Positions 3,124 to 58,650 of a stretch of 64,000 nt of DNA are shown one piece after another (the first letter of the stretch is position 1; each line of letters starts with the position of its first letter). Position numbers and translations under genes: made by a program. The DNA lies in the NCBI GenBank assembly GCA_944387495.1, contig CALXFD010000003.1, positions 3,534 to 67,533 of the forward strand. The letters are read 5' to 3'. The stretch comes from an uncultured Clostridia bacterium. Its GTDB lineage: Bacteria > Bacillota > Clostridia > TANB77 > CAG-508. The notes under the pieces were generated by a model that saw only the letters and a list, made by a program, of their open reading frames with translations, did no database searches and was not told the origin of the DNA.

Positions 3124-4125
3124 TTGCGAAAAGATAATTCAAAAGAATATAATGTGGATTTATACCATTTTGAACATCAAGAAGAGGAAACATTAGAAGA
3201 GTTAATGAAGAAAAAGAAAGAAAGAGAAAGAAGAATAAAAGAAAAAAATAGGCAAAACCAAGAAGAATTTAATGAAGAGTTTGATTTTGATACAGAAACA
3301 GTAATAGGAATGACAAATAAAAATAATAAAAAAATAGAAGATGAAAAAAGAAAACAATTCTCAAAAAATCAAAGAAGAAAAGAAAGAAGAATAAAGAAAA
3401 TAAAACTAGTATTAAAAATTATAGTTTTACTAGGGCTTGTAGCAGGTGCGATAGTATTTGCTACATGTTCACCTTTTTTTGACATTAAAGAAATACAAGC
3501 ATTAAACTCAAATCAAATAAGTAGTGAAACTATAATAAGTTTATCAGGCTTAAAAACAGGGCAAAATATTTTTCAATTTTGGACAAGTGATGTACAAAAA
3601 AATATAAAAACAAATGCATATATTGAGAGTGTAAAGGTTAAAAGAAAATTTCCTAATAAAATTGAAATAGAAGTGCAAGAAAGAGAACCTAAATTTAGTA
3701 TACCAGTATTAGGACAGTATGCATATATGAGTAGTCAAGGATATGTACTAGAAATTAAAGCAAATGAATTAAATCTTCCAATTATAAATGGTTTAAAAAC
3801 ACCAGAAGAGAGCATCTCACCTGGTAATAGAATAAATGAAGAAGATTTGAATAGCCTAGAAACAATATTAAAAATAATGAATTCAATGAAAGAATCTAAT
3901 TTAGACAGTAAAGTCACTACAATTGACATAAGTGATAAAAATGATTATATTATATATATGCAAAGTGAAAACAAAAAAATACACTTAGGAGATGGCTCAA
4001 ATTTAAGCAATAAAATGTTATATGTTATAGCAATAATAGAAGAAGAAAAAGATAAAAAGGGAGAAATTTTTGCAAATGGAGATTTAAACGATAAGTTTAA
4101 AGTATATTTTAGAGAAGAAGTATAA
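3124..4125 (+). CDS. ftsQ: cell division protein FtsQ/DivIB with a long Lys/Glu-rich N-terminal cytoplasmic extension
   Basis: TTG start with GGGAGG 8 nt upstream. One TM segment followed by a POTRA-like region. Position between murA and the DUF881 genes matches divIB in B. subtilis. Confidence 0.7.
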   Translation: MRKDNSKEYNVDLYHFEHQEEETLEELMKKKKERERRIKEKNRQNQEEFNEEFDFDTETVIGMTNKNNKKIEDEKRKQFSKNQRRKERRIKKIKLVLKIIVLLGLVAGAIVFATCSPFFDIKEIQALNSNQISSETIISLSGLKTGQNIFQFWTSDVQKNIKTNAYIESVKVKRKFPNKIEIEVQEREPKFSIPVLGQYAYMSSQGYVLEIKANELNLPIINGLKTPEESISPGNRINEEDLNSLETILKIMNSMKESNLDSKVTTIDISDKNDYIIYMQSENKKIHLGDGSNLSNKMLYVIAIIEEEKDKKGEIFANGDLNDKFKVYFREEV

Positions 4126-7441: not shown

Positions 7442-8563
7442 ATGATGGATTACAATGAGGATAACAATGTTTCAATGATGGATGGAACAGCAACAATAAA
7501 AGTTATAGGTGTAGGAGGAGCAGGAAATAACGCTGTAAATAGAATGATTGATGCTGGAATAAAAGGTGTTGACTTTATTGCTGTAAATACAGATAGACAA
7601 GCTCTACAAACATCAAAAGCAAATACAAAAATTCAAATAGGAGAAAAAATAACAAGAGGATTAGGAGCAGGTGCAAATCCAGATATAGGAGCACAATCAG
7701 CAGAAGAAAGCAAAGCAGAATTATCAGAAGTATTAAGAGGAGCAGATATGGTATTTGTTACAGCCGGAATGGGTGGAGGAACAGGTACAGGAGCTGCACC
7801 AGTTGTTGCACAATCTGCAAAAGAAATGGGAATATTAACAATAGGTGTTGTTACAAAACCATTCACATTTGAAGGTAAAAAAAGACTTTCACAAGCAGAA
7901 AGAGGAATAGAAAGTTTAAAAGGTAAAGTAGATACATTAGTAGTAATACCAAATGATAAATTACTACAAATTATAGATAGAAAAACATCAATAATAGAAG
8001 CATTTAAAATGGCAGATGATGTTTTAAGACAAGGTGTACAAGGAATATCAGACTTAATTGCAATTCCAGGACTTGTAAACTTAGACTTTGCAGATGTTAA
8101 AACAATAATGCTAAATCAAGGAATGGCACATATGGGTGTTGGTAGAGCAGCAGGAGAAAATAGAGCAGAAGATGCAGCAAAACAAGCTATTCAAAGTCCA
8201 TTACTAGAAACATCAATCGAAGGAGCAAGAGGAGTAATAATAAACATTACAGGTGGAGAAGATTTAGGATTACATGAAGTAAATACAGCAGCAGAATTAG
8301 TACAACGCAGTGTAGACCCAGAAGCAAATATCATATTTGGTACAGTAACAGATCCATCAATGGAAGATGAAATCCAAATTACAGTTATAGCAACAGGATT
8401 TGAAAAACCAGAATCAATATCAAGTATTGGTGTAGATAATATGGTATCAAAAACATGGGAAAAGAAAATAAGCTCAATTCCATCAAGCTCAGAAGTAAGC
8501 TCGTCACAAAATGATTTAGACATACCATCTTTTTTAAGAAAAAACAAAAATAAAAGCTTATAA
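7442..8563 (+). CDS. ftsZ: cell division protein FtsZ
   Basis: GGGTGTG tubulin signature, [36 protein letters not shown]. Confidence 0.95.
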
Positions 8564-8565
8564 AA

Positions 8566-8695
8566 GTTAAATTGGGGACGTTTCTTTTTGGACATTTTTG
8601 ACCATTTGGGGACGTTTCCTTTTGGACAAAAATGTCCAAAAGGAAACGTCCCCAAATGGTCAAAAATGTCCAAAAAGAAACGTCCCCAATTTAAC
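8566..8695. repeat. perfect 130-bp palindrome (63-bp arms, 4-nt AAAA centre) made of tandem TTGGGGACGTTTCYTTTTGGACA units in a head-to-head arrangement
   Basis: Reverse complement of 8566-8628 equals 8633-8695 exactly. It starts 3 nt after the ftsZ stop. Related units occur at 18406-18450 and 35874-35924. Confidence 0.85.
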
Positions 8696-8870
8696 CTGTC
8701 CCCAAAAACTGAGCAATTTTTACTATTTTTAATGAACAAAATGTTCTAAATTATCGATTATTTCTTAATTTCTACAATAAGAAAAGACAGTATTTTCAAA
8801 TGAAAGGTAGTACAATAATACATGTATTTAACAAAAGATATTAAAACAAAGTTAAATATCAGGTGATAAG

Positions 8871-9758
8871 ATGACAGTATACATAGATGTAGTTTTAATA
8901 GAAAACTTAATCATGAATTACATAATAATATTTGCAACAGGTATAATTTTAAAAATAAAGATGAAGCAAATTAGAATGATATTAGGAAGTCTTATAGGTG
9001 CAATATATACAATAATAGCATATGTTTCAAATTTAAGGATTTATTCAAATTTTATATTAAAATTTATACTATCAATAATAATAGTATATATATCTTTTAA
9101 TCCACAAACACAAAAACAATTATGGAAATCTCTTTTAATATTTTATTTAACTTCACTTGTTTTTGGAGGAGCAGCTTTTGCAATTATATATGTAGTAAGA
9201 CCACAAGAAATATTAAGAAATAATCAATTAATATTTGGAACAACATCAATGAAAGTAATATTATTTTCAGCTATACTTGCATTTATAGTTATAATATTAG
9301 CATTTAAAATAGTAAAAAACAAAATATCCAAGAAAGATATGTTTTGTGATATAGAAGTAAAAATAAATGAAGAAATAATAAAAACAAAAGCAATGATTGA
9401 TACTGGTAATTTTTTAAAAGAGCCAATTACAAATAAGCCAGTAGTAGTAATAGAACATACATTATTATATGATTGTATACCAAAACAAATATTGAATAAT
9501 ATAGAACAAATATTGGGAGGTGATTTTTCAAATGTACCAGAAGAAATAAGAGAAGAATATATTTCTAAACTAAAATTTATTCCTTTCAGTTCACTCGGAA
9601 AACAAAATGGTATGTTGATTGGAATAAATGCAAAATATATAAAAATAAAAAGTGAAGAAAATGAAAATATAAATGAAAATGTTATAGTTGGAATATATAA
9701 TAAATCATTAACGAAAAGGGGAGAATATAGAGCTTTAATAGGAATTGAACTAGTATAA
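8871..9758 (+). CDS. spoIIGA: sporulation sigma-E processing aspartic protease SpoIIGA
   Basis: Five N-terminal TM helices plus the catalytic motif MIDTGNF. Immediately upstream of sigE. Confidence 0.85.
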   Translation: MTVYIDVVLIENLIMNYIIIFATGIILKIKMKQIRMILGSLIGAIYTIIAYVSNLRIYSNFILKFILSIIIVYISFNPQTQKQLWKSLLIFYLTSLVFGGAAFAIIYVVRPQEILRNNQLIFGTTSMKVILFSAILAFIVIILAFKIVKNKISKKDMFCDIEVKINEEIIKTKAMIDTGNFLKEPITNKPVVVIEHTLLYDCIPKQILNNIEQILGGDFSNVPEEIREEYISKLKFIPFSSLGKQNGMLIGINAKYIKIKSEENENINENVIVGIYNKSLTKRGEYRALIGIELV

Positions 9759-9840: not shown

Positions 9841-10581
9841 ATGAAAATAATAGATTTTGTAAAAAATAGTATATCTTCAATTTGTGCAAAATACTTAAAT
9901 GATAAAGAGGAAATAGAGTATTTACCAATATTTTATATAGCAGGAAGCCAAACATTGCCACCACCATTATCCCCAGAAGAGGAAGAAGAATATATAAAAC
10001 AATTATCAAATGAAGATAATTTTGAAGCAAGACAAATATTAGTAGAAAGAAATTTAAGATTAGTTGTATATATAGCAAAAAAATTTGAAAATACAGGAAT
10101 AGGAATAGAAGATTTAATTTCAATAGGTACAATAGGACTAATGAAAGGAGTAAATACATTTAATACAGGAAAAAATATAAAACTTGCCACATATGCATCA
10201 AGATGTATAGAAAATGAAATATTAATGTTTTTAAGGAAAAATAATAAAATAAAAGGAGAAATTTCAATAGATGAACCATTAAATAAAGATGGAGATGGAA
10301 ATGAATTACTATTATCAGACATATTAGGAACTGAACCTGATGTAACATCAAGAAATATAGAAGATGAAGTAGATAAAACATTATTAAGAGCAGCAATTCT
10401 AAAATTAAATGATAGAGAAAAAGAAATAATGGAAATGAGATTTGGTTTTAGAAATGGCGGAAAAGAAAAAACGCAAAAAGAAGTGGCAGATGAACTTGGA
10501 ATATCACAAAGTTACATATCTAGATTAGAAAAGAAAATAATTAGTAAAATGAAAAAAGACATAGCTAGCAAAATAGGATAA
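9841..10581 (+). CDS. sigE: RNA polymerase sporulation sigma factor sigma-E (pro-sigma-E)
   Basis: Pro-sequence ..[13 protein letters not shown], sigma-70 regions 2 and 4 ([33 protein letters not shown]). Confidence 0.9.
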
Positions 10582-10723: not shown

Positions 10724-11497
10724 TTGCTAAACAAAGTAGAAATATGTGGTGTAAATACTTCTAAACTACCATTATTAAGCAAAGAAGAAAAAGAAGAATT
10801 ATTTGTAAAAATAAAACAAGGAGATAATGAAGCAAGAAATAAATTTATAAATGGAAATTTAAGACTAGTTTTAAGTGTAATACAAAGATTTTATGGTAGA
10901 GGTGAAAATGCAGATGATTTATTTCAAGTAGGATGTGTTGGCTTAATAAAAGCAATAGATAATTTTGACCTAAACCAAAATGTACAATTTAGCACATATG
11001 CAGTTCCAATGATAATAGGAGAAGTAAAAAGATATTTAAGAGATAATAATAGTATAAGAGTAAGTAGGTCTATACGTGATTTGGCATATAAAGTAATACA
11101 ATATAAAGAAAAATATGGTAAAGAAAATGGTAGAGAACCTAAGGTAGAAGAAATAGCCAAAGAATTAGGTGTAACAAAAGAAGAAATAGCATTTAGTTTA
11201 GATGCAATTCAAGACCCGGTATCACTACAAGACCCAGTATATAATGATGGTACAGAAAGTATCTTTATAATGGATCAAGTAAAAGATAGTAAAAATACAG
11301 ATGAAATGTGGGCAGAAAACATGACAATAAAAGGAGCATTAGAAAAACTAAATGATAAAGAAAAAATGATAGTAACCAAAAGATTTTTTGATGGAAGAAC
11401 ACAAATGGAAGTAGCAGAAGAAATAGGAATATCACAAGCACAAGTATCAAGGCTTGAAAAAAGTGCAATACAGCATATAAAGAGATGGTATAAATAA
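10724..11497 (+). CDS. sigG: RNA polymerase sporulation sigma factor sigma-G
   Basis: N-terminus NKVEICGVNTSKLPLLS typical of SigG, and region 4 QMEVAEEIGISQAQVSRLEK. TTG start after GGAGG. Confidence 0.9.
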   Translation: MLNKVEICGVNTSKLPLLSKEEKEELFVKIKQGDNEARNKFINGNLRLVLSVIQRFYGRGENADDLFQVGCVGLIKAIDNFDLNQNVQFSTYAVPMIIGEVKRYLRDNNSIRVSRSIRDLAYKVIQYKEKYGKENGREPKVEEIAKELGVTKEEIAFSLDAIQDPVSLQDPVYNDGTESIFIMDQVKDSKNTDEMWAENMTIKGALEKLNDKEKMIVTKRFFDGRTQMEVAEEIGISQAQVSRLEKSAIQHIKRWYK

Positions 11498-18307: not shown

Positions 18308-18405
18308 TAAAAATGCCTCCTTTTTATCAAATTTATTATGAGATAAGTATATGCCTAAAATGCAAATGTGTCAAGGAAAATTTGCTAATTAGAATAGGTG
18401 GTTGA

Positions 18406-18450
18406 AACATTGGGGACGTGTCAAATCGTCTCAAAAAATCCATTTTTACG
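18406..18450. repeat. degenerate solo copy of the GGGGACG repeat unit (attggggacgtgtc..ccatttttacg)
   Basis: An 11/11 match to attggggacgt and a similar tail, in the divergent promoter region between the POR operon and the response regulator. Confidence 0.4.
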
Positions 18451-35180: not shown

Positions 35181-35873
35181 ATGATTTATTCAAAGGAATT
35201 AGAAGAAATGTGTACAGTTGCAAAAGGAGTTAATCATGGACCAGCACCAATTCCAGAAGAAGGAAAATGGGTTAAAGCAAAAGAAATAAAAGATATATCA
35301 GGATTAACACATGGTATTGGATGGTGTGCACCACAACAAGGAGCATGTAAATTAACTTTAAATGTAAAAGATGGAGTTATTCAAGAAGCATTAATAGAAA
35401 CAATAGGATGTTCAGGAATGACACATTCAGCTGCCATGGCAGGAGAAATATTAACAGGAAAAACAATATTAGAAGCACTAAATACAGACTTAGTATGTGA
35501 TGCTATAAACACAGCAATGAGAGAATTATTCTTACAAATAGTATATGGAAGAACACAAACAGCATTCTCAGAAGGAGGACTTCCAGTAGGAGCAGGACTT
35601 GAAGACTTAGGAAAAGGTCATACATCACAAGTAGGAACAATTTATTCAAGCACATTAAAAGGACCAAGATACTTACAATTAACAGAAGGATACATAGTAG
35701 AATTAGGATTAGATAAAGATGACCAAATCATCGGATATAAATATGTTCATATGGGAAAAATGATGGATAACATCAAAAAAGGAATGGACCCAATGGAAGC
35801 AATAGAAAAAGCTTCTGGTACATATGGAAGATTTAACGAAGCTGTTAAGAAAATAGACCCAAGAAAAGAATAA
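35181..35873 (+). CDS. NifU/IscU-like Fe-S scaffold-domain protein
   Basis: GWCAPQQGACKL and ETIGCSGMTHSAAMAGE resemble IscU cluster-ligand segments. ATG 35181 after AAAGGAG. Confidence 0.6.
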   Translation: MIYSKELEEMCTVAKGVNHGPAPIPEEGKWVKAKEIKDISGLTHGIGWCAPQQGACKLTLNVKDGVIQEALIETIGCSGMTHSAAMAGEILTGKTILEALNTDLVCDAINTAMRELFLQIVYGRTQTAFSEGGLPVGAGLEDLGKGHTSQVGTIYSSTLKGPRYLQLTEGYIVELGLDKDDQIIGYKYVHMGKMMDNIKKGMDPMEAIEKASGTYGRFNEAVKKIDPRKE

Positions 35874-35924
35874 TGTCCAATTGGGGACGTTTCTGTTTGG
35901 ACATTTTTGTCCAATCTGGGACAC
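35874..35924. repeat. solo copy of the GGGGACG repeat unit (tgtccaattggggacgtttctgtttggacatttttgtccaatctgggacac)
   Basis: A 31-nt near-identity to the 8566-8695 palindrome unit, including the ggacatttttgtcc hairpin. Starts immediately after the stop of the NifU-like gene. Confidence 0.65.
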
Positions 35925-35966
35925 ATCTATTATAAAAATAAACAAAATAAAATAGGAGGTATAAAA

Positions 35967-56542: not shown

Positions 56543-57511
56543 ATGGAAAATAAAAAAGGATTAGTAGGAAATACTCCTATGATTAAAATTGATTATACAT
56601 ATGAAGGAAAAAGTAGATATATGTATGCAAAAATGGAAATGTATAATCTTACAGGAAGTATAAAAGATAGAGTAGCATACCAAATAATAAAAAATGCAAA
56701 ACAAAAAGGAATACTAAAAGATAAAATGCCAATAATAGAAGCAACAAGCGGTAATACTGGAATCGCATTATCTGCTCTCGGAGCATATTATAAACATCCT
56801 ATATATATATTTATGCCAGATTGGGCAAGTCAAGAAAGAATAAAACTTATGAAACAATATGGTGCAAATATAATTCTTATTTCAAAAGAAGAGGGAGGAT
56901 TTATAAGATGTGTAGAAGAAGCAAAAAAACTTGCAAAAGAGAAAAATGGATTTCTATCAAATCAATTTGCAAATGAGGATAATATTGTTGCACATTATGA
57001 AACAACAGGAAAGGAAATAGTAGAACAGTTAACTGAAACACCAGGAGCTTTTATTTCAGGAGTTGGAACAGGTGGGACATTAATTGGGATTGCAAAAAGA
57101 TTAAAAGAAAATTATAAAGATGTAAAAATAATAGCATTAGAACCAGATAAAATGCCGATGATATCAAAAGGGGAGGTATATGGTCATCATAAAATAGAAG
57201 GAATCGGAGATGACTTCATACCAGATTTATTTAATAAAAAATTGGTTGATGATTTTGTTTTAGTAAATGATGATGATGCAATTAATATGTCTAGAAAATT
57301 GGCAAGAGAACTAGGTTTAGGTGTGGGAATTTCATCAGGAGCAAATTTTATAGGAAGTGCTATAAAGCAAAATGAAATAGAAAAGCCAATAGTAACAATA
57401 TTTGCAGATGATAATAAAAAATATTTGTCAACAGATTTGAGCAAAGAGATAGATGAAAATAAGGACTTTTTGTCAAATAAAATAGAGCTCTTAGATTTTA
57501 GTGTAGTTTAA
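56543..57511 (+). CDS. cysK: cysteine synthase / O-acetylserine sulfhydrylase family (PLP-dependent)
   Basis: PLP-lysine motif SIKDR, and SGNTG. The last 37 nt lie inside the 86-bp inverted-repeat arm. Confidence 0.8.
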   Translation: MENKKGLVGNTPMIKIDYTYEGKSRYMYAKMEMYNLTGSIKDRVAYQIIKNAKQKGILKDKMPIIEATSGNTGIALSALGAYYKHPIYIFMPDWASQERIKLMKQYGANIILISKEEGGFIRCVEEAKKLAKEKNGFLSNQFANEDNIVAHYETTGKEIVEQLTETPGAFISGVGTGGTLIGIAKRLKENYKDVKIIALEPDKMPMISKGEVYGHHKIEGIGDDFIPDLFNKKLVDDFVLVNDDDAINMSRKLARELGLGVGISSGANFIGSAIKQNEIEKPIVTIFADDNKKYLSTDLSKEIDENKDFLSNKIELLDFSVV

Positions 57512-57784
57512 TTTGCCTGGTGGTGGAGCTTATAGTAAAAAAAATTTATTTAATCTTAATGTGCGAAGCGGAATAATTTAGAAGCTCTTTGCGAAATAAC
57601 TGGAATAATGTTCGTGTGAAATTTATTTCTAATAAATTTCAGCACAGAAAAAGGTTCCAGTTTTTCGCATAGAGATTCTTAATTATGTAGCTGAGCCGTT
57701 AAGATTAAATAAATTTTTTTTACTATAAGCTCCACCACCAGGCAAATTAAACTACACTAAAATCTAAGAGCTCTATTTTATTTG
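57474..57784. repeat. foldback structure: perfect 86-bp inverted repeat arms (57474-57559 and 57699-57784) around a 139-bp partly palindromic core with a central 11-bp hairpin
   Basis: Arms are base-for-base reverse complements. The left arm contains the cysK stop and final 12 codons. The core halves are about 70 percent mirror-similar. Confidence 0.9.
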
Positions 57785-57815
57785 GCAAAAAAGAATTCAA
57801 TTTTTGAATTCTTTT
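57785..57815. terminator. bidirectional palindromic terminator (aagaattcaa ttt ttgaattctt) at the 3' end of sigK
   Basis: Perfect palindrome flanked by A and T runs. Confidence 0.55.
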
Positions 57816-58507
57816 GATAATTTATCAATAGCTTTTGTTTCAATCCTAGACACATAGCTACGAGAAATTCCGAGCATTTCTGCAATTTCATGCTGTGTTT
57901 TAGGTTTATGCCCACCTAGGCCAAATCGTAATTCTAAAATAGTCTTTTCACGAGTTTTTAAAATAGATTTCATTTTCTCATATAAAAATTTAATTTTCAT
58001 TTTGATATCAACTTCTTCTTCAATAGGTCTTTCATTATTTTCTAAAACTTCTTGTAATGTTACAACATTATCATCTTTATCTTTTCCTATTGGCTCATTT
58101 AAATATACTTCTGCACCAAGTTTTTTAGTAGACCTCAAATGCATTAATATTTCATTATCAATACATCTAGAAACATATGTAGAAAGTCGAGAACCTTTAT
58201 CAACATTAAAACTATTTATACCTTTTATAAGACCAATAGTTCCAATTGAAATTAAATCATCTTGATTAACATTTGAAGTACTATATTTTTTAGAAATATG
58301 GGCAACTAATCTTAAATTTCTTTCAATTAAAATATTTCTAGCTTCTTCATTACCATTTTTCATTTGTTCTAAATACATTTTTTCTTCTTCTTGTGTTAAA
58401 GGTTCAGGAAATAAATTACTACCTGAAATATATCCAACAACAAAAACAGCTGATTTCAGAAATTCTATAAATCCTAAAATACCTGACAAACAAAGTGCAG
58501 AAAACAT
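57797..58507 (-). CDS. sigK: RNA polymerase sporulation sigma factor sigma-K (pro-sigma-K), uninterrupted
   Basis: Pro-sequence MFSALCLSGILGFIEFLKSAVFVVGYISGSNLFPEPLT, then [22 protein letters not shown], and EIAEMLGISRSYVSRIETKA. ATG 58507 with GGAGG 6 nt upstream. Confidence 0.9.
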   Translation of the reverse strand: MFSALCLSGILGFIEFLKSAVFVVGYISGSNLFPEPLTQEEEKMYLEQMKNGNEEARNILIERNLRLVAHISKKYSTSNVNQDDLISIGTIGLIKGINSFNVDKGSRLSTYVSRCIDNEILMHLRSTKKLGAEVYLNEPIGKDKDDNVVTLQEVLENNERPIEEEVDIKMKIKFLYEKMKSILKTREKTILELRFGLGGHKPKTQHEIAEMLGISRSYVSRIETKAIDKLSKEFKN

Positions 58508-58650
58508 ATAGCACCTCCATACTATAAAAAATTTAAAATCTGTATATAAATTCACACATAACAATTATATGAATAAAAAAAATAAAAGTGCATGGACCAA
58601 TTAATTTTAATATTTTGTAATTAAATGAATTCAAGAAAATATAATTTAAT

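Follow-up and report, generated by a model that had tools for sequence, protein, structure and literature searches.

The locus between ftsZ and the spoIIGA-sigE-sigG operon of this uncultured Clostridia bacterium raises the question of where a long perfect palindrome comes from, and whether it was built to guard the sporulation genes, as originally predicted. The window, i.e., the whole 64-kb stretch of DNA analysed, was compared with sequences from related genomes (L numbers are our own labels for these). We consider it probable (about 0.8) that the palindrome consists of four clustered REP-type units, two in tandem facing two inverted ones, from a REP-RAYT system found in a clade of uncultured low-GC gut Clostridia. 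The coordinates of the features are collected in Table 1.

Table 1 Positions, strands and assignments of the features discussed in the text.
Feature	Position	Strand	Basis or remark
ftsZ	7442..8563	+	NCBIfam TIGR00065, E=3.4e-136; stop TAA 8561-8563
Left arm	8566..8628	+	GTTAAA, then tandem REP units U1 (8572-8605) and U2 (from 8606); unit = TTGGGGACGTTTCYTTTTGGACA + spacer
AAAA centre	8629..8632	.	junction from loss of 73 nt found in the conspecific long allele (alignment A1)
Right arm	8633..8695	-	reverse complement of the left arm without mismatch; both REP units in - orientation
Extra partial unit CTGTCCCC (reverse complement of GGGGACAG)	8696..8703	-	just outside the right arm; conserved in strains
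Remnant of the ancestral ftsZ intrinsic terminator (TAAATTATCGATTATTTCTTAATTTCT)	8747..8773	+	comparison with L088, L127, L128, L129, L147 and L150
spoIIGA, first gene of spoIIGA-sigE-sigG	8871..9758	+	TIGR02854, E=1e-65
Degenerate fragment of a sister GGGGACG family (cattGGGGACGtgtcaaatcgtctca)	18402..18426	+	sequence comparison
Solo full-length REP element (ATGTCCAATTGGGGACGTTTCTGTTTGGACATTTTTGTCCAATCTGGGACACATCT)	35873..35928	+	shares its first A with the end of the upstream gene's TAA
cysK	56543-57511	+	left arm of the sigK-linked repeat overlaps the last 15 codons
sigK	57797-58564	-	3' end faces the cysK 3' end (convergent)

Direct sequence comparison bore out most of the structural description in the original prediction. 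The two 63-nt arms are 100% complementary around AAAA, the left arm begins 2 nt past the ftsZ stop codon, i.e., on the third base after it, and the palindrome is GC-rich (38.5%) in a window of 26.6% GC, close to the predicted background of 27%. Each arm does consist of two tandem units, but these measure 34 nt and not about 33 (8572-8605 and 8606-8639, 27/34 identical), and the outer six nucleotides per arm (GTTAAA) lie outside the repeat family. The core GGGGACGTTTCYTTTTGGACA was matched five times in the window against 0.00 expected, with four matches in the palindrome and one in a solo element. Folded as RNA, positions 8540-8760 gave -116.7 kcal/mol (z=-19.8) with a single uninterrupted 63-bp stem, which ends in AAUUUAAC and is followed by CCUGUCCCC, with no T-run after it. 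Downstream of the palindrome, spoIIGA starts at 8871, sigE at 9841 and sigG at 10724. The unit, which had been proposed as a query for RNA family databases, belonged to no Rfam family at the gathering threshold: two tRNAs passed in the window and nothing at the palindrome, while a relaxed threshold returned generic long-hairpin matches to microRNA precursors, all sub-threshold. An assembly artefact was considered and ruled out, as other contigs encode the same SpoIIGA protein: the independent contig L123 carries the identical full palindrome including its ftsZ end, and L124, which comes from another study and begins within the left arm, agrees in both centre and right arm. In addition, a junction k-mer specific to this short allele, absent from the long allele described below, is present in assemblies of two studies. 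Many short contigs end within the repeat, as is expected of repeats in short-read assemblies.

A census of the unit identified it as a dispersed repeat that occurs as monomer, in tandem and head to head. Its 21-nt core (GGGGACGTTTCNNTTTGGACA) was found in at least 120 places (counted in 8-kb tiles) in about 39 uncultured Clostridia, Clostridium and Eubacteriales MAG species, figures that are a lower bound from one genome per species; one of the listed matches was a chance match in a Halobacillus gene. The hosts of the repeat-carrying MAGs include mouse, chicken and goat guts. Based on 146 copies in the loci examined, the full element is about 56 nt long and reads aTGTCCAtTT-GGGGACG-TTTCCTTT-TGGACA-TTTT-TGTCCAtTTTGGGACACATCT; 12 of the 146 copies lie within ORFs and the remainder are intergenic. 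Enough flank for classification was available for 144 copies, which comprised 64 monomers with a truncated second unit, 66 copies of the core only, often as inverted pairs 90-250 nt apart, and 14 copies in head-to-head pairs joined via AAAA, an arrangement that the window palindrome shows at its centre. Copies in tandem were also seen in L050 and L064. The solo element of the window follows a gene with a weak, sub-threshold NifU match, and its orthologous site is also occupied in another species (L072). Plasmid and phage collections contained no BLAST match to the consensus, and a full-text literature search for the GGGGACG repeat returned only unrelated papers.

The sequence around GGGGACG has the properties of a hairpin. 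Flanks that pair perfectly over at least 6 bp were present at 132 of 220 GGGGACG sites (60%) compared to 4% of control positions, and the consensus single-stranded DNA fold places GGGGACG in the loop of an ATGTCCA/TGGACAT stem. Sister families in the same loci keep GGGGACG between flanking arms that are different but mutually complementary (TTGCCA..TGGCAA; GATGTTTTT..AAAAACATC; GGGATT..AATCCC; GAGAC..GTCTC; TGTCGCA..TGCGACA; TGTCCA in the window family), and several such families co-exist within the one genome of L076. As the stems differ while GGGGACG is constant, the unit appears to be a hairpin whose loop is conserved. The degenerate sister-family fragment in the window belongs to the same GGGGACG family as a MITE-like element of about 215 nt in the spoIIGA-sigE spacer of L150 (1588-1830), which has 32-nt inverted ends (ATGGAACGTTGGGGACGTGCTAAATCGTTCCA) and an AT-rich interior.

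The search for an associated enzyme started from ORFs flanked on both sides by units and was continued by similarity. It yielded an ORF of 264-266 aa between units in L028 and L054 and, by similarity, also in L115. Both unit-flanked ORFs matched Pfam PF01797 (Y1_Tnp) above the gathering score (L054 E=2e-15; L028 E=5e-17) as well as NCBIfam NF047646, the REP-associated tyrosine transposase (L054 E=4e-18, 65.6 bits; L028 E=1e-20, 73.9 bits), where both scores fall just below the curated cut-off of 80 bits. The protein carries the HUH (NHVHL) and YIHQNP motifs, and one homolog has been named RayT by JGI. A profile of 24 homologs searched against the PDB matched only 4ER8 (TnpArep of E. coli), marginally (E=0.032) and with HUH and YIxxNP aligned; phmmer with a single RAYT sequence found no match among the PDB sequences, and phmmer with an approximate IS200 TnpA query found nothing among all ORFs in about 1 Mb. 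The gene order small gene - RAYT - radA was found in 6/6 lineages (L054, L028, L115, L153, L157 and L160), in all of which inverted units flank the RAYT gene with their tails toward it, the units of the most distant lineage being from a diverged family. This conserved synteny fits a RAYT gene that is vertically inherited and putatively single-copy. The 64-kb window contains neither a RAYT gene nor radA, and the enzyme is therefore known from related genomes only. Because a RAYT gene flanked by inverted units is the layout of a REPtron, we read the palindrome as a REP cluster (BIME/REPIN-like). That this RAYT acts on the GGGGACG unit is assumed, since the conserved motif lies in the loop and not at the stem foot as in GTAG/CGTC REPs.

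Some further observations concern the enzyme and its contigs. In the RAYT protein (L054 4333-5130), a C-terminal extension of about 120 aa (residues ~140-266 of alignment A2) is conserved, with a helix-turn-helix-like segment (TKTQIARVTGINRKIIERAI) at its end; the profile gave a faint match to the phage immunity repressor PDB 8BNY (E=0.28), and the E. coli TnpA-REP chain (165 aa) aligns with the N-terminal part only, the extension having no counterpart there. Many RAYT contigs are 0.9-1.0 kb long, approximately what the gene spans from one flanking repeat to the other, which indicates that the repeats systematically fragment short-read assemblies of this clade.

The copies are placed with respect to genes in an unusual manner. 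A random distribution and copies inside coding sequences had been named as signs of a simply selfish repeat: some copies do lie within coding sequences, but the distribution relative to genes is far from random. Among 58 copies that follow a same-strand gene, 29 begin at most 2 nt from its stop codon compared to 5.9 expected under uniform placement, a number reached in 0 of 200,000 simulations. The exact junctions are stop|TGTCCA or TAG|GGACA, a TA-ATG overlap is created in 18 of 34 stop-abutting copies, and in the opposite orientation the same end of the element abuts the Shine-Dalgarno sequence of the neighbouring gene. In the left flank of the copies, A/T richness was the only feature seen in the target-consensus search, and neither a target-site consensus nor a duplication was found. 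Between co-directional genes both orientations were equally common (48 vs 43), which argues against a strand-specific RNA function. The consensus contains no TA dinucleotide and is free of stop codons in all six frames, a property equalled by 11 of 20,000 shuffles, and in-frame copies were found in LepA (a 15-aa N-terminal extension), MiaA, ComEC and PolA (in an inter-domain linker). Other copies adjoin unrelated genes such as the NifU-like gene, radA and thrS. We also considered whether REP copies generally replace terminators and rejected this: a separate terminator-like hairpin follows 20/37 stop-abutting copies and 346/731 ordinary stops, and since the frequencies are equal the element normally lies in the 3' UTR with the terminator not replaced. 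Neither known RAYT biology nor current models of REP spread predict that the left end falls exactly on stop codons.

Separate observations were made where the element meets a start codon. At two sites (L115 ~3700-3850 and L044 1048-1100), it lies between the Shine-Dalgarno sequence and the original start, and its tail contributes an ATG (AGATGTGTCCC) at the proper Shine-Dalgarno distance. At lepA the tail ATG is in frame and places MCPQMDKNVQTETSP ahead of the normal MRHIRNF, while at radA (L115) it opens a mini-ORF whose TAA overlaps radA codons four and five. The tail ATG may thus suggest translational bridging of the flanking genes.

The history of the ftsZ-spoIIGA spacer was traced through a metagenome scan with SpoIIGA, which gave four loci and was completed by exact-protein look-ups. 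The spacer lacks the element in four related species (L127, L128, L147 and L150; SpoIIGA 52-73% identical), where it contains a canonical hairpin with a T-run (GAAATAATCG..CGATTATTTC TTTTTTT), and two species (L088 and L129) have one element exactly between the stop codon and the next base, with the terminator intact. In this comparison of the spacer in relatives, which had been proposed as a check of the locus, the element is absent in four and single in two. In three conspecific strains (L138, L131 and L137; SpoIIGA 98-99% identical), the palindrome is longer (about 203 nt) and imperfect, and is composed of two full elements tail to tail with a 27-nt centre between them. The window allele corresponds to this long allele with the 73 nt that separate two direct TGGACA repeats taken out (alignment A1). 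In a 92%-identical relative (L143, L144) the right arm has five units compared to two in the window, and among the spacers compared the multi-unit cluster is limited to the window species and this relative. Since short, long and five-unit forms exist, the locus is structurally unstable and the perfect symmetry is recent.

Two irregularities were seen in the contigs of this locus. In L131 (1-700), L137 (1-700) and L121 (1-385), the latter with a five-unit variant, the same or nearly the same SpoIIGA and the repeat cluster are joined to different upstream genes, namely an RCC1/WD40-repeat protein, a PMT_2 glycosyltransferase and a sequence without assignment; such joins stem either from chimeric assembly across the repeat or from genuine rearrangement mediated by the REPs. 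A 39-nt centre of the long allele (AGATGTATGGATTGACCATAGGTCAATCATCATATATCT) has opposite orientations in L133 (1-60) and L138 (370-410), which may reflect assembler ambiguity instead of a true inversion, because the arms exceed the k-mer length of assemblers.

In the window lineage the ftsZ terminator has decayed. The remnant has lost the loop and one arm, its T-run is interrupted, and the fold of 8735-8780, which contains it, gave -2.1 kcal/mol (z=-0.6) compared to -13.2 kcal/mol (z=-6.1) for the terminator of L088. Six relatives keep the canonical terminator, and its collapse is confined to the lineage that carries the multi-unit cluster; between 8300 and 9000 no terminator-like site was found. 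The palindrome itself lacks the G+C-rich 5-15 bp stem and subsequent U-run of an intrinsic terminator. Because the terminator collapsed exactly where the multi-unit cluster occurs, a secondary role of the cluster as terminator substitute at ftsZ-spoIIGA is possible but unproven, and it is plausible that the palindrome now represents the sole remaining barrier or processing site between the two genes.

We propose the following origin for the cluster. In an ancestor, a RAYT acting on single-stranded hairpin DNA would have put one element right behind the ftsZ stop codon. This element would then have been duplicated both in tandem and in inverted orientation, and a later slippage deletion would have led to the present symmetric form; the perfection of the arms would reflect recency or arm-to-arm conversion and not functional selection. 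The cluster is probably transcribed as part of the ftsZ 3' UTR, where the 63-bp RNA duplex would block 3' exonucleases and be a substrate of RNase III. With the ancestral terminator collapsed, it is perhaps the only structure that limits read-through into spoIIGA, which would be a secondary consequence of the cluster and not its origin. What speaks against the REP reading, besides the points on the enzyme, the loop motif and the stop-codon placement given above, is that mobility is deduced from comparisons, no event having been observed directly, and that the collapsed terminator leaves room for a selected local function.

Such a function was the core of the original prediction, in which a purpose-built hairpin guards the pro-sigma-factor operons, with giant hairpins at the entry of both sigE and sigK. 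The second of these hairpins is a 93-nt inverted repeat (57467-57559 / 57699-57791) with 99% complementarity and arms 139 nt apart, and it is unrelated in sequence to the GGGGACG elements. As sigK lies on the minus strand, this repeat is found between the convergent 3' ends of cysK and sigK and not at the entry of sigK, so the proposed symmetry did not survive; the repeat could be another mobile element or a bidirectional terminator. A dedicated insulator or terminator selected to stop ftsZ read-through into spoIIGA-sigE-sigG would fit the extremely stable RNA hairpin, the conservation of the ftsZ terminator in six relatives and its collapse only with the multi-unit cluster, and the lack of another terminator-like site in 8300-9000. 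However, no T-run follows the stem, the element sits beside many unrelated genes and inside coding sequences (lepA, miaA, polA, comEC), four relatives manage without it, copies elsewhere precede a separate terminator as often as ordinary stops do, the locus is polymorphic between strains (short, long and five-unit forms), and the sigK repeat offers no parallel. We therefore regard this explanation as unlikely, and as the origin of the element it is not supported. Another explanation is that the REP family was co-opted as a translation-compatible module for gene boundaries, the expanded ftsZ cluster having replaced the terminator and its polymorphism tuning read-through into spoIIGA-sigE. It draws on the six-frame openness, the left end on stop codons, the TA-ATG overlaps and the Shine-Dalgarno abutment, and the element at lepA, miaA and radA is read as an N-terminal extension or a bridging mini-ORF. 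We judge it quite unlikely; if true, it would imply strain-level or cell-level variation in sporulation entry.

The alternatives of a MITE dimer or a regulator-binding array had also been raised. The former was right in as much as the unit is a small mobile repeat, dispersed and RAYT-linked, but a classical MITE derived from a DDE-transposase IS, with the units as terminal inverted repeats and the palindrome as a MITE with lost interior, is improbable. Inverted unit pairs 90-250 nt apart with AT-rich interiors (L011, L043, L068, L069 and L070) and the 27-nt centre between the inverted elements of the long allele would suit it, against which stand the lack of a target-site duplication or target consensus in our search and the covariation of stems around an invariant loop, typical of hairpin-recognised elements. 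Moreover, the sole transposase found among ORFs flanked by units on both sides in about 1 Mb was the Y1/HUH RAYT. None of these ORFs was recognised as a DDE transposase, with the family-library scan covering the recurrent Y1 cluster, and a DDE partner may lie elsewhere. An invertible DNA switch, in which the arms flank a flipping segment that alters spoIIGA expression, is suggested by the 39-nt centre of L133 being opposite to that of L138, L131, L137 and L144; yet short-read assemblies do not fix the orientation of a centre between arms that exceed the k-mers of the assemblers. The window allele, besides, has lost the centre that would flip, the locus has no neighbouring recombinase gene and no promoter-like site was found in the element, which makes a switch barely credible. 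Eight TGTCCA/TGGACA-type motifs about 10 nt apart, roughly 80-210 nt upstream of a conserved spoIIGA promoter block, could be taken for a regulator-binding array with TTGGACA/TGTCCAA as operators, e.g., degenerate Spo0A (TGTCGAA) or SpoIIID-like boxes. The motifs presumably resemble the 0A box with one mismatch, which is a lead and not a test. However, it is the CG core of the 0A box that the mismatch affects, and the array is also present at genes unrelated to sporulation and within coding regions and is missing upstream of spoIIGA in most relatives, so that this alternative fell away with only the slightest probability left to it.

Read as a REP cluster, the palindrome can be compared with several known systems. 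Like the REP/BIME/REPIN elements of E. coli and Pseudomonas with their RAYT (TnpA-REP), the Clostridia units are short hairpin repeats with many mostly extragenic copies that occur singly, in tandem and as inverted doublets. Both have a syntenic Y1/HUH transposase (here putatively single-copy) between inverted repeats, and in both the copies usually lie in 3' UTRs or between cistrons and occupied sites persist across species. Inverted doublets that form larger hairpins are found here in the 14/144 head-to-head copies, the window palindrome and the long allele. In contrast to the GTAG at the stem foot of those REPs, all Clostridia families have an invariant GGGGACG in the loop, and neither GTAG nor CGTC was found at the stem foot. 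Further differences are that several families with unrelated stems share one loop within one genome, that unit stems are short (6-9 bp) and loops long (11-18 nt), that the RAYT adds a C-terminal extension of ~120 aa, and that the units are hosted by a Gram-positive spore-former of 27% GC. Read as its reverse complement, CGTCCCC, the motif recalls the CGTC-tagged REPs (Rickettsia RPE-4/RPE-6, Neisseria dRS3; PMC3733652), in which head-to-head dimers likewise predominate and some copies are intragenic. In those, however, the tag is terminal, stems are 8-9 bp, loops are 4-5 nt and a transposase is not associated (PMC3733652), whereas here the motif is internal to the loop and the RAYT gene is flanked by units.

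Other likenesses are more partial. Rickettsia palindromic elements (RPE) are similar by description in that in-frame copies are tolerated in essential genes (here lepA, miaA, polA and comEC, with a consensus that has no stop codon in six frames), but they are 100-150 bp long with no known transposase, and no sequence similarity was seen. MIRUs share a tandem unit number that varies between close relatives, placement between operon genes and open frames whose start overlaps the upstream stop (here the TA-ATG of 18/34 stop-abutting copies); they differ in being oriented with the operon and not being transposase-linked hairpins, while both orientations are equally common here. Rho-independent terminators resemble the palindrome as stable stem-loops directly downstream of a gene but have a U-tract and a stem of 5-15 bp compared to 63 bp, and relatives have a genuine terminator besides the element.

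To our knowledge, REP elements have been studied almost only in Proteobacteria. Firmicutes are absent from the list of the tagged-REP survey (Di Nocera et al. 2013, PMC3733652), and for Clostridia PMC5581495 notes only that Group 1 RAYT genes occur there. On this basis the REP-RAYT system of this large clade of uncultured gut Clostridia is apparently undescribed. Its recognition explains the palindrome downstream of ftsZ, which is not to be taken as a sporulation regulator without experiments. It is also relevant to the quality of MAGs of the clade, since the repeats break short-read assemblies, with contigs that end within them and some that join unrelated genes. The stop-codon placement and the six-frame openness of the element are unpredicted by current models of how REPs spread, and the invariant loop, the many naturally covarying stems and the syntenic RAYT together form a ready data set for the study of RAYT recognition.
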